A DNA stretch of 17,884 nt from contig JAYZQJ010000153.1 of the NCBI GenBank assembly GCA_036149055.1, positions 1 to 17,884 of the forward strand, read 5' to 3'. Below are positions 10,838 through 17,884 of this stretch, piece after piece. The notes under the pieces were generated by a model. The model was not told the origin of the DNA and did no database searches. It worked only from the letters and a program-made list of their open reading frames with translations. Source of the stretch: Myxococcota bacterium (lineage in GTDB: Bacteria; Myxococcota_A; Polyangia; Polyangiales; Sandaracinaceae). Numbering within the stretch: the first letter of the stretch is position 1; each line of letters begins with the position of its first letter. Made by a program: the position numbers and the translations under genes.

Positions 10838-11374
10838 ATGACCGCGCTGGACACCCTGGCGTCGCGCCTGAGCCTCGGCGATCTCCTGGAGACGCTGCGG
10901 GCCGGCTGGGGCGACTACGAGCTGCTCGCCCACTGGACCCCGCTCCCGGAGGGGGCCTGCGCCCCCTCCCGGCCGACCGGCAAAGCCGGCTCGGCCTCCC
11001 ACCCCATCTAACGCGCTCACGCGCGTTGAAGGTGCGGCGAGGCCGCACCTTCCGGCGAGTTCCACCACGACGTCGTCCTGAAGGTCGACGACCCGAAGAG
11101 CCTGCCCGGGCCGTACCTGGTCGTGGCCACCAACTGCAACGGGGGCGTCAAGGAGGTGCTCTGCTTCGGCGAGCGCCCCGACCGGGAGGCGCTGTGGCAC
11201 TGGCGCTGCCCGGAGGGCGAGTTCGAGGACCGGACGCTGCCCCCGATCCTCGCCCGCGAGGAGACCTGTCACTTCTTCGATCCCTGCGAGCTGCTCGCGG
11301 CCGACGCCCGGAGCGAGCTCCGCCCCGAGCACCGCCGTCGCCAGCGAGGCGGCGGCTGGGAACCCGCGTATTGA
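10838..11374 (+). pseudogene. ~140-aa His/Cys-rich hypothetical gene interrupted by a structured insertion (pseudogene or discontinuous gene)
   Basis: ATG 10838 lies 13 nt after the cytochrome stop. 10838-10939 (MTALDTLASRLSLGDLLETLRAGWGDYELLAHWT) and 11054-11374 (GEFHHDVVLKVDDPKSLPGPYLVVATNCNGGVKEVLC...WHWRCP...HFFDPC...GGGWEPAY) share one frame with near-total G/C third positions. They are separated by a hairpin array containing TAA (11009) and TGA (11027). Confidence 0.72.
10940..11053. mobile_element. Four-hairpin palindromic insertion (REP/RPE/MITE-like), ~111-114 bp
   Basis: HP1 10948-10969 (9 bp), HP2 10971-10996 (11 bp, 1-nt bulge), HP3 11010-11027 (7 bp), HP4 11028-11052 (11 bp). 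No clear TIR or target duplication. Confidence 0.7.
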
Positions 11375-16581: not shown

Positions 16582-17884
16582 CCCGGGAGGCTAACGCATG
16601 CGCGTCGCCCTCGGCGACGGCGGCCCGCGAGCCAGCCGAGGACCAGCAAGAGGAGCCACGCGGGCGGGCGCCGCCCGACGACACCACACCCGCAGCCCGT
16701 CGCCGGCACCGAGGGGGTGGGCAGGCCGCCGTCGGCGTGGGGGGCGCAGCGATGGTCGAGGCAGCTCTCGCCGGCGCCGCACTCGGCGTCCTCGTGGCAG
16801 CAGCCGGCGATCGGGAGCCGCTGGCAGCCCCCCTCCAGGCAGCGGTCTCGCGTGCAGACGTCGCCGTCCTCGCAGTCTGCGTGTGACCGACAGCAGCCCG
16901 CGACCTCGACGTGCGTACAGCCGGCGATCGCGTCGCAGGCGTCCGCCGTGCAGCGGTCACCGTCATCGCAGCGGAGGGGGCGACCCTCCGCGCACTCGCC
17001 GGCCGCGCACGTCTCGGCGCCGTCACAGACGTCGCCGTCGTCGCAGCTCATCCCGTCGGCGGCTCGCTGATCGAAGCCGCAGTGCAGGTGCACGCCGTCG
17101 CAGGTGTCCGAGACGTCACACGGCCCCGTCGACGGCCGGCATTCCGTGCCCTCCGCGGCCGCCCACTCTGCCGGGCACTCCGCCATGAGGCCGTCGCAGA
17201 CCTCGGGCGCGTCACAGGCGCCCGCCGCGGGGCGACACACCGCGGCCGTCTCGTCGAAGGCGTAGCGGCAGTGGCCGGAGGGATCGCAGCGGTCCTCGAC
17301 ATCGCATGGCCCCTCGGCCGGCCGGCAGATCGCGCCCGGCTCGAGCCGAGCGTCGGCCGGACAGTCCACGCCGACGCCGTCGCAGATCTCCTCCGGGTCG
17401 CAGGCGCCTCCGCTCTCCCGGCACACCCACCCCGCGGAGACCGCGGTGCAGCGGCCGTCCTCGCTGCCTCCGAGCGCCACGGAGCAGGCCTCGCAGCCGC
17501 CCAGGCACGCGGACTCGCAGCACACTCCGTCGACGCAGTGGCCCGAGCCGCACTCGGCGTCCACGACGCAGCTCGCGCCGTCGTCGGCCCCGACCTCGAG
17601 GCGGGCGGAGAGCAGGCGGCGGTCACCGTTCCCGGGCCCGTCCACCAGGTGGAGCACCGCGGCGCGCTCCTGACCCCGGTACGCGATGTCCTCGATCTCC
17701 CCTCGCGGGATCGTCGAGGGGCCTCCGAGCACCTCGCCGCGAAGGTCCGTGAGGACCAGCGCGCTCGTCAGGGCCCCCGCGACGCGCACCCAGCAGTGGC
17801 TGTCCCCACAGTGGATCGAGAGGCAGCCGCTCGGCAGGGCGTGGGCGCGCCCGGGCGCGCCGTCCGCGTCCACCGCGACGAGGC
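16578..17884 (-). CDS. Cys-rich surface protein with disintegrin-like repeats and a MYXO-CTERM sorting signal (5' part outside window)
   Basis: Four CRxxxGxCDxxExC-type repeats, CDDGxxCT-type repeats, and a C-terminal GCGC + hydrophobic stretch + RRRR. The frame stays open to the window edge. Confidence 0.85.
   Translation of the reverse strand, partial: LVAVDADGAPGRAHALPSGCLSIHCGDSHCWVRVAGALTSALVLTDLRGEVLGGPSTIPRGEIEDIAYRGQERAAVLHLVDGPGNGDRRLLSARLEVGADDGASCVVDAECGSGHCVDGVCCESACLGGCEACSVALGGSEDGRCTAVSAGWVCRESGGACDPEEICDGVGVDCPADARLEPGAICRPAEGPCDVEDRCDPSGHCRYAFDETAAVCRPAAGACDAPEVCDGLMAECPAEWAAAEGTECRPSTGPCDVSDTCDGVHLHCGFDQRAADGMSCDDGDVCDGAETCAAGECAEGRPLRCDDGDRCTADACDAIAGCTHVEVAGCCRSHADCEDGDVCTRDRCLEGGCQRLPIAGCCHEDAECGAGESCLDHRCAPHADGGLPTPSVPATGCGCGVVGRRPPAWLLLLVLGWLAGRRRRGRRACVSLPG

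Follow-up and report, generated by a model that had tools for sequence, protein, structure and literature searches.

The nearest described counterparts of the repeat reported here are the PATEs of Haloquadratum and the REP, BIME and REPIN repeats. In the parts of the source considered here, PATEs are described as lacking terminal inverted repeats (TIRs), carrying near-terminal palindromes, causing no target duplication, having a non-coding length, forming strain-specific insertions and having ends that resemble IS605-type transposons (PMC3119063). The relevant portions of other reports state that REP ends also provide stop codons and enter genes (PMC3733652), that RAYT cuts between C and T (PMC8266576), and that Rickettsia palindromic elements are mostly in-frame fusions (PMC10969869). 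Mobile inserts with structured ends inside genes are further described, again in sources considered in part, for IStrons (10.1101/2023.11.20.567912) and for the T4 gene 60 cassette (10.1101/2022.08.31.505936). Within the main texts covered, and their coverage was partial, there was no account of the present repeat in myxobacteria.

Here, we describe a copy of this repeat in a window of 17,884 nt (the whole stretch of DNA analyzed), which is contig C153 of a draft genome (G000; 9.9 Mb, 289 contigs, 73% GC). The host of the repeat is a marine myxobacterium, and homologues with a named source suggest the Sandaracinaceae. An earlier note, made from the letters of the window alone, had proposed that a small gene is interrupted either by a non-autonomous REP/REPIN-like element or by an element that is removed or skipped at the DNA, RNA or ribosome level. 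The former is borne out by a family of 50 matches, by empty alleles and by ends without TIR or duplication, and we consider it probable (roughly 0.82) that the locus is an inherited insertion by a transposase-less hairpin repeat that has likely truncated the gene (Table 1). A cytochrome c gene ends 13 nt upstream of the locus. The insert comprises 113 nt (10941-11053) that stand in place of AG, a net gain of 111 nt.

Table 1. Features of the interrupted gene and of the inserted repeat (positions in the window).
Feature	Positions	Strand	Description
Host gene, 5' part	10838..10940	+	Codons 1-34 plus the first Gln35 base; conserved 141-aa protein, no known family
Four-hairpin element	10941..11052	+	112 nt; diverged copy of the 116-nt genome repeat
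Left linker	10941..10947	+	Unpaired; 3/7 bases off the family consensus; varies between copies
Hairpin 1	10948..10969	+	Within the left-end module common to the long sister repeat and relatives
Hairpin 2	10971..10996	+	C-G to G-C swap at 10972/10995 relative to the genome consensus
Hairpin 3	11010..11027	+	Basal C-G to A-T swap (1/39 copies) makes in-frame TAA (11009) and TGA (11027)
Hairpin 4 and right end (CTTC)	11028..11052	+	Completes an opposite-strand TGA stop in most other copies
Lone C	11053..11053	+	Empty allele has AG here; junction lesion, Gln codon lost
Host gene, 3' part	11054..11374	+	Codons 36-141, intact

Both flanks proved to be coding in one shared frame, as had been supposed, with GC3 values of 0.97 and 0.94 and no decay in carriers of the insert. 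Reading from 10838, 57 codons precede the TAA at 11009; the TGA at 11027 follows, and the same frame then runs on to 11374. With the 3' half as a protein query, 2056 homologues were recovered, and the top match (P0003) is a contiguous protein of 141 aa that matches both halves without a difference and has a Gln linking Thr34 to Gly36. The joined protein of about 140 aa foreseen in the earlier note is therefore real and Gln is its native junction residue. Further intact alleles occur among members of the P0003 cluster, and Gln35 is conserved in 96/96 aligned homologues (chosen from 120 listed). The protein family, with more than 2000 homologues, also features invariant His, Cys, Asp and Glu residues, and its members may possibly bind metal. 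The host protein has no match in Pfam. Its structure is predicted with a pLDDT of 95, and the predicted model returned no Foldseek hit at E<=0.001 (best VIA Z 4.7; atlas best 0.75), which amounts to no known fold match and is not proof of a new fold. In this model the insertion point (residues 35/36) is predicted to lie at the turn between the two strands of a beta-hairpin.

The presence of the insert is an inherited strain polymorphism. Eight of 24 listed sequencing runs (six DNA, two RNA) were compared, all as contigs. Four of the six DNA runs carry the insert, X1, X2 and X3 in one piece each and X14 in two overlapping pieces, X1 possibly being the source of the window. It is also carried by a metagenome locus (L016) with one SNP over 537 nt. 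The remaining DNA runs, X6 and X7, and both RNA runs, X15 and X16, lack it, and here 10940 is joined to 11054 with AG between. Two linked variants, T11338C and C11341T, occur on the empty RNA contigs, in X6 and on one X7 piece, and are absent from X1, X2, X3 and X14. C11078T is common to carriers (X2, L016) and to the empty contig X15; therefore, the haplotypes have mixed. The joint in the RNA runs had been read as splicing, a candidate ruled out by the identical joint in DNA runs. Since the AG of the empty form is missing from the filled allele, the empty form cannot be its spliced product. The removal at the DNA or RNA level envisaged earlier is accordingly not supported, the insert-free sequences being alleles of other strains, present in DNA runs too and with the extra AG. 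RNA processing of the insert in carrier strains is likewise unlikely, and both RNA runs compared are of the empty form. It had also been claimed that deleting 111 or 114 nt restores the open reading frame. The frame does reopen, but the native junction is never obtained, since 113 nt now stand where the Gln codon had its AG; every clean in-frame removal attempted near the junction yields Pro, Ser or a loss instead of the native residues.

The element was originally described as almost entirely back-to-back hairpins. Four hairpins do cover 91/112 nt and the fold is far more stable than expected (z = -5.75 as DNA and -5.91 as RNA; 0/200 shuffles as good), but a 13-nt unpaired tract separates hairpins 2 and 3. 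Loop 4 is shorter than in the family. The TAA and TGA reported at the feet of hairpin 3 are indeed located there, and both result from one compensatory pair change at its base; the first 23 codons of the insert are open.

A BLASTN search confirmed the suspected repeat family, with 48 matches in G000, and a profile from which the window copy had been withheld found 50; contiguous homologue and other copies both exist, as an insertion predicts. Copies are usually 116 nt long and share a fixed right end; the bit score is 82 for the window copy and up to 131 for others. In the outer stem of hairpin 2, which has 32 distinct arm pairs, 83/96 cells are Watson-Crick; shuffles average 44.8 +/- 4.1 and 0/5000 do as well, a statistic uncorrected for kinship. 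Judged from these alignments, the stems of the family appear to be kept by covariation. Neither a terminator- nor a promoter-like match was found for the repeat, and a comparison with viral contigs gave 0 matches.

The same genome harbors a long sister repeat (about 300 nt) that has the two-hairpin left module of the 116-nt family, a similar right end and likewise an ^AG joint. In 59/151 matches, its left-end pattern follows a same-strand stop at a constant spacing. The long repeat sits behind a same-strand TGA, whereas copies of the 116-nt family terminate on a TGA of the opposite strand. Across 66 copies of the long repeat (e.g., C4:52353), 29 versions of the 7-nt linker ahead of hairpin 1 were counted, against hairpins that hardly change. 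Unpaired positions other than the left linker also vary; linker variability is not target-derived, and may reflect either drift where bases are unpaired or joining that is prone to error. Beyond this genome, 31/301 order-level genomes have a match (G000 and the unpublished G127 counted), and the exact motif occurs 21-42 times in 4/5 family genomes. A species collection yielded 45 loci, nearly all from Sandaracinaceae, and 2/401 genomes in a phylum sample contain the motif. In relatives, 44/80 left ends follow a same-strand stop (one G127 site and overlapping loci counted) and far ends are variable. At L153 (G015:C10), L149 and L157, related elements are strung head to tail in arrays that reach six units, each unit being about 169 nt long.

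Two empty alleles define the cut. The second, for the copy in contig C47 (P0135, P0136), sets it at TC^AG and assigns the A to the right side, and 7/8 intragenic sites with both flanks read GCTC^AG (4) or ACCC^AG (3). The family therefore inserts at (G/A)C(T/C)C^AG; two of these seven sites are shown by empty alleles, and five are inferred by reconstruction. Ends compared over 26 aligned copies have no TIRs, and neither empty allele displays a target duplication, in agreement with what had been noted at first sight; the window joint has a 1-nt loss. Near-terminal palindromes are present, with hairpins 7 nt from the left end and at the right end. The element starts with approximately AG and its last bases are TC, so that each joint resembles the target. 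The first two left-end bases vary between copies. Four head-to-tail tandem joints of right end and left end are consistent with TC^AG. A 13-nt loose-end match was at chance level. On the minus strand the target reads CT^GAGC, so a TGA stop hit by insertion is repaired by the end of the element: the terminal TC and the target A would rebuild TGA on the opposite strand. With gene calls taken from our own codon model, an opposite-strand TGA is found at 21/44 right ends (one a stop made mid-gene), compared to 488/6118 CTGAGC sites (8%), and 5110/6118 CTGAGC sites (84%) lie inside genes against only about 9 copies. The rebuilt TGA would account for the many harmless copies at stop codons and for the scarcity of intragenic ones, presumably through selection.

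Eight intragenic copies could be scored. Five are 116-nt copies that shift the frame (G000:C169, C182, C268, C157 and C172/C36), and a probable lipoprotein is among the genes they break; two of the copies split Pfam domains, in a response regulator and in an endonuclease/phosphatase. Three keep the frame: the window copy (two stops), a copy in C107 that appears in frame with a stop, and the only fully open one, a 111-nt copy in C47 (about 16666-16778; L165:2066-2179, minus strand) that encodes an in-frame insert of 37 residues in a kinase-like gene. A further candidate in C253 was dropped since it sits at the stop of a gyrase-B-like gene. The earlier note had rated frame preservation, with its one-in-three chance, as suggestive only, a caution that was warranted: 3/8 in frame is the chance share, and a comparison made before C107 was added gave no enrichment (2/7 versus 5/24, p=0.64). 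The in-frame net length in the window is best read as chance, because it arises from a 112-nt variant and a 1-nt junction loss. Likewise, an element that is regularly removed or skipped does not fit with intragenic copies that are rare and mostly frameshifting, and we infer that such copies are usually harmful and purged, unlike a silent self-removing element.

Compared with known systems, the repeat shares the PATE traits listed above apart from the IS605-like ends, for which no parent transposon was found in G000 or five relatives, and bases on either side of the cut define its target. Like REP, BIME and REPIN sequences, it comprises short hairpin repeats in tens of copies with tandem arrays, stop-supplying ends and occasional intragenic copies. 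It differs in having no GTAG/CGTC tag, its left linker being AG plus a pyrimidine tract, and in consisting of four hairpins that differ from one another instead of a REP pair in inverted orientation, with no Y1 gene flanked by them. The minus-strand cut, CT^GA, also differs from the RAYT cut between C and T. As a palindromic repeat in coding sequence it resembles the Rickettsia elements, and the open C47 copy, whose product is predicted from its reading frame, would be Rickettsia-element-like; in contrast to those elements, only 1/8 scorable intragenic copies is open. The absence of TIRs and target duplication separates it from a strict MITE. Overall, the family is hairpin-repeat mobile DNA resembling PATEs and REPINs, and no mobilizer was found in G000 or the relatives examined.

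A search for an HUH/IS200-, RAYT- or IS110-type gene flanked by these hairpins, as the earlier note had suggested, came back empty for G000 and the relatives examined. Nine Y1 matches in G000 are set among other repeats, and element ends are absent from these nine loci and from 11 in relatives. Seven near-identical Y1 (HUH) genes in G000 (L096-L102; about 230 aa) are flanked by a different palindromic repeat. The complete genomes G003 (one contig, 25 motif copies) and G118 (two contigs, 42) have no Y1 match, and neither TnpB nor a Y1 locus bearing the element's ends was recovered from the G000 draft or five relatives. A multi-copy IS110 family in G003 and G118 (L247-L255) appears inserted in another hairpin-rich repeat. 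IS91-type Y2 had no match in G000, G001 or G003, although the control of one search matched nowhere. DUF559 gave one unrelated match, and clustering of 356 flanking ORF records revealed nothing both recurrent and transposase-like. In two genomes an HNH gene is followed, after about 300 nt, by an element copy (L109 in G001:C91, and L200); the array in which the L109 copy lies comprises six tRNAs and a YrlA RNA.

Two explanations would keep the host gene functional. Departure of the element from the RNA, intron-like as in IStrons, or from the DNA is highly improbable: it would account for a net length that is a multiple of three, for intact flanks and for the joined form in 2/2 RNA runs, but the AG of that form is absent at the filled junction, the same form occurs with linked SNPs in DNA, and the invariant Gln is regenerated by no clean cut. 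An Rfam search with the insert returned two chance matches and no intron family; unlike an IStron or group I intron, these 112 nt of simple hairpins have no catalytic core and do not regenerate the wild-type sequence. In addition, the depletion of copies from genes and the frameshifts in 5/8 cases speak against silent insertion. An equally improbable alternative is that ribosomes bypass or read through both stops, which would yield a protein with a loop inserted at the turn. The stops at the hairpin feet, the open codons ahead of them and the site in the predicted model lend themselves to this reading. However, matched take-off and landing codons as in T4 gene 60 are lacking, as the earlier note had observed: over 150 nt, none of the frames offers a landing codon matching ATC, and the ATC preceding TAA recurs in frame only at 11246. 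Both stops stem from a pair seen in a single copy, Gln35 is lost, and the gap, being rich in GC and in structure, contrasts with the AU-rich gap of T4 as presented in the part of the source considered (10.1101/2022.08.31.505936). An insert that is neither removed nor skipped would leave the gene truncated, and loss of the host protein probably follows.

How the inserted repeat moves is a separate matter. By analogy with PATEs and REPINs, we tentatively favor cut-and-paste of folded single-stranded DNA by an enzyme acting in trans, at somewhat less than even odds. IS200/IS605 targets are as a rule unconstrained 3' of the cut, unlike that of the present repeat, which is specified on both sides. 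A two-sided target and existing right-end/left-end joints could instead point to an IS110-type double-strand recombinase, whose circle joint TC^AG would mimic the target, and IS110 genes occur in 5/5 copy-bearing relatives. IS110 uses a matching core, however, and the first two left-end bases are too variable for a strict one; no IS110 gene was detected in the G000 draft (289 contigs) by profile or tblastn, and element ends are absent from all 19 loci examined of 28 in the five relatives, so this route is quite unlikely. Slightly less so, though still unlikely, is copying by a reverse transcriptase via an RNA intermediate, or by rolling-circle replication. This would fit a constant left end together with the far ends that differ and the units joined head to tail in relatives, as well as the variable T-rich linkers beside near-invariant hairpins and the reverse transcriptase present in G000 and 5/5 relatives. 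Against it stand the fixed right end and fixed 116 nt of the short family and the variation of unpaired positions beyond the linker. The G000 reverse transcriptase locus and five Y2 loci were also without element ends or linkage, and Y2 gave no match in three of the genomes.

In summary, what is seen at this locus is probably a routine knockout of a gene by a small repeat. Together with the C47 copy, it supplies the empty alleles that fix the cut site and target of a stop-codon repeat family, which is shown to be polymorphic among strains. We also raise, as a broader and doubtful proposal, a Sandaracinaceae-wide hairpin superfamily that cuts in CT(C/G)AG, rebuilds a stop, moves between strains and seeds open peptide inserts, with a mover other than a RAYT, IS200, IS110 or IS91 transposase, since two complete copy-rich genomes are without Y1 and no transposase locus bears the ends. 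Which enzyme moves transposase-less hairpin repeats in RAYT-less genomes is testable in the Sandaracinaceae lineage. Finally, the open kinase insert in C47 suggests that the family may add peptide segments to proteins, as Rickettsia elements do.
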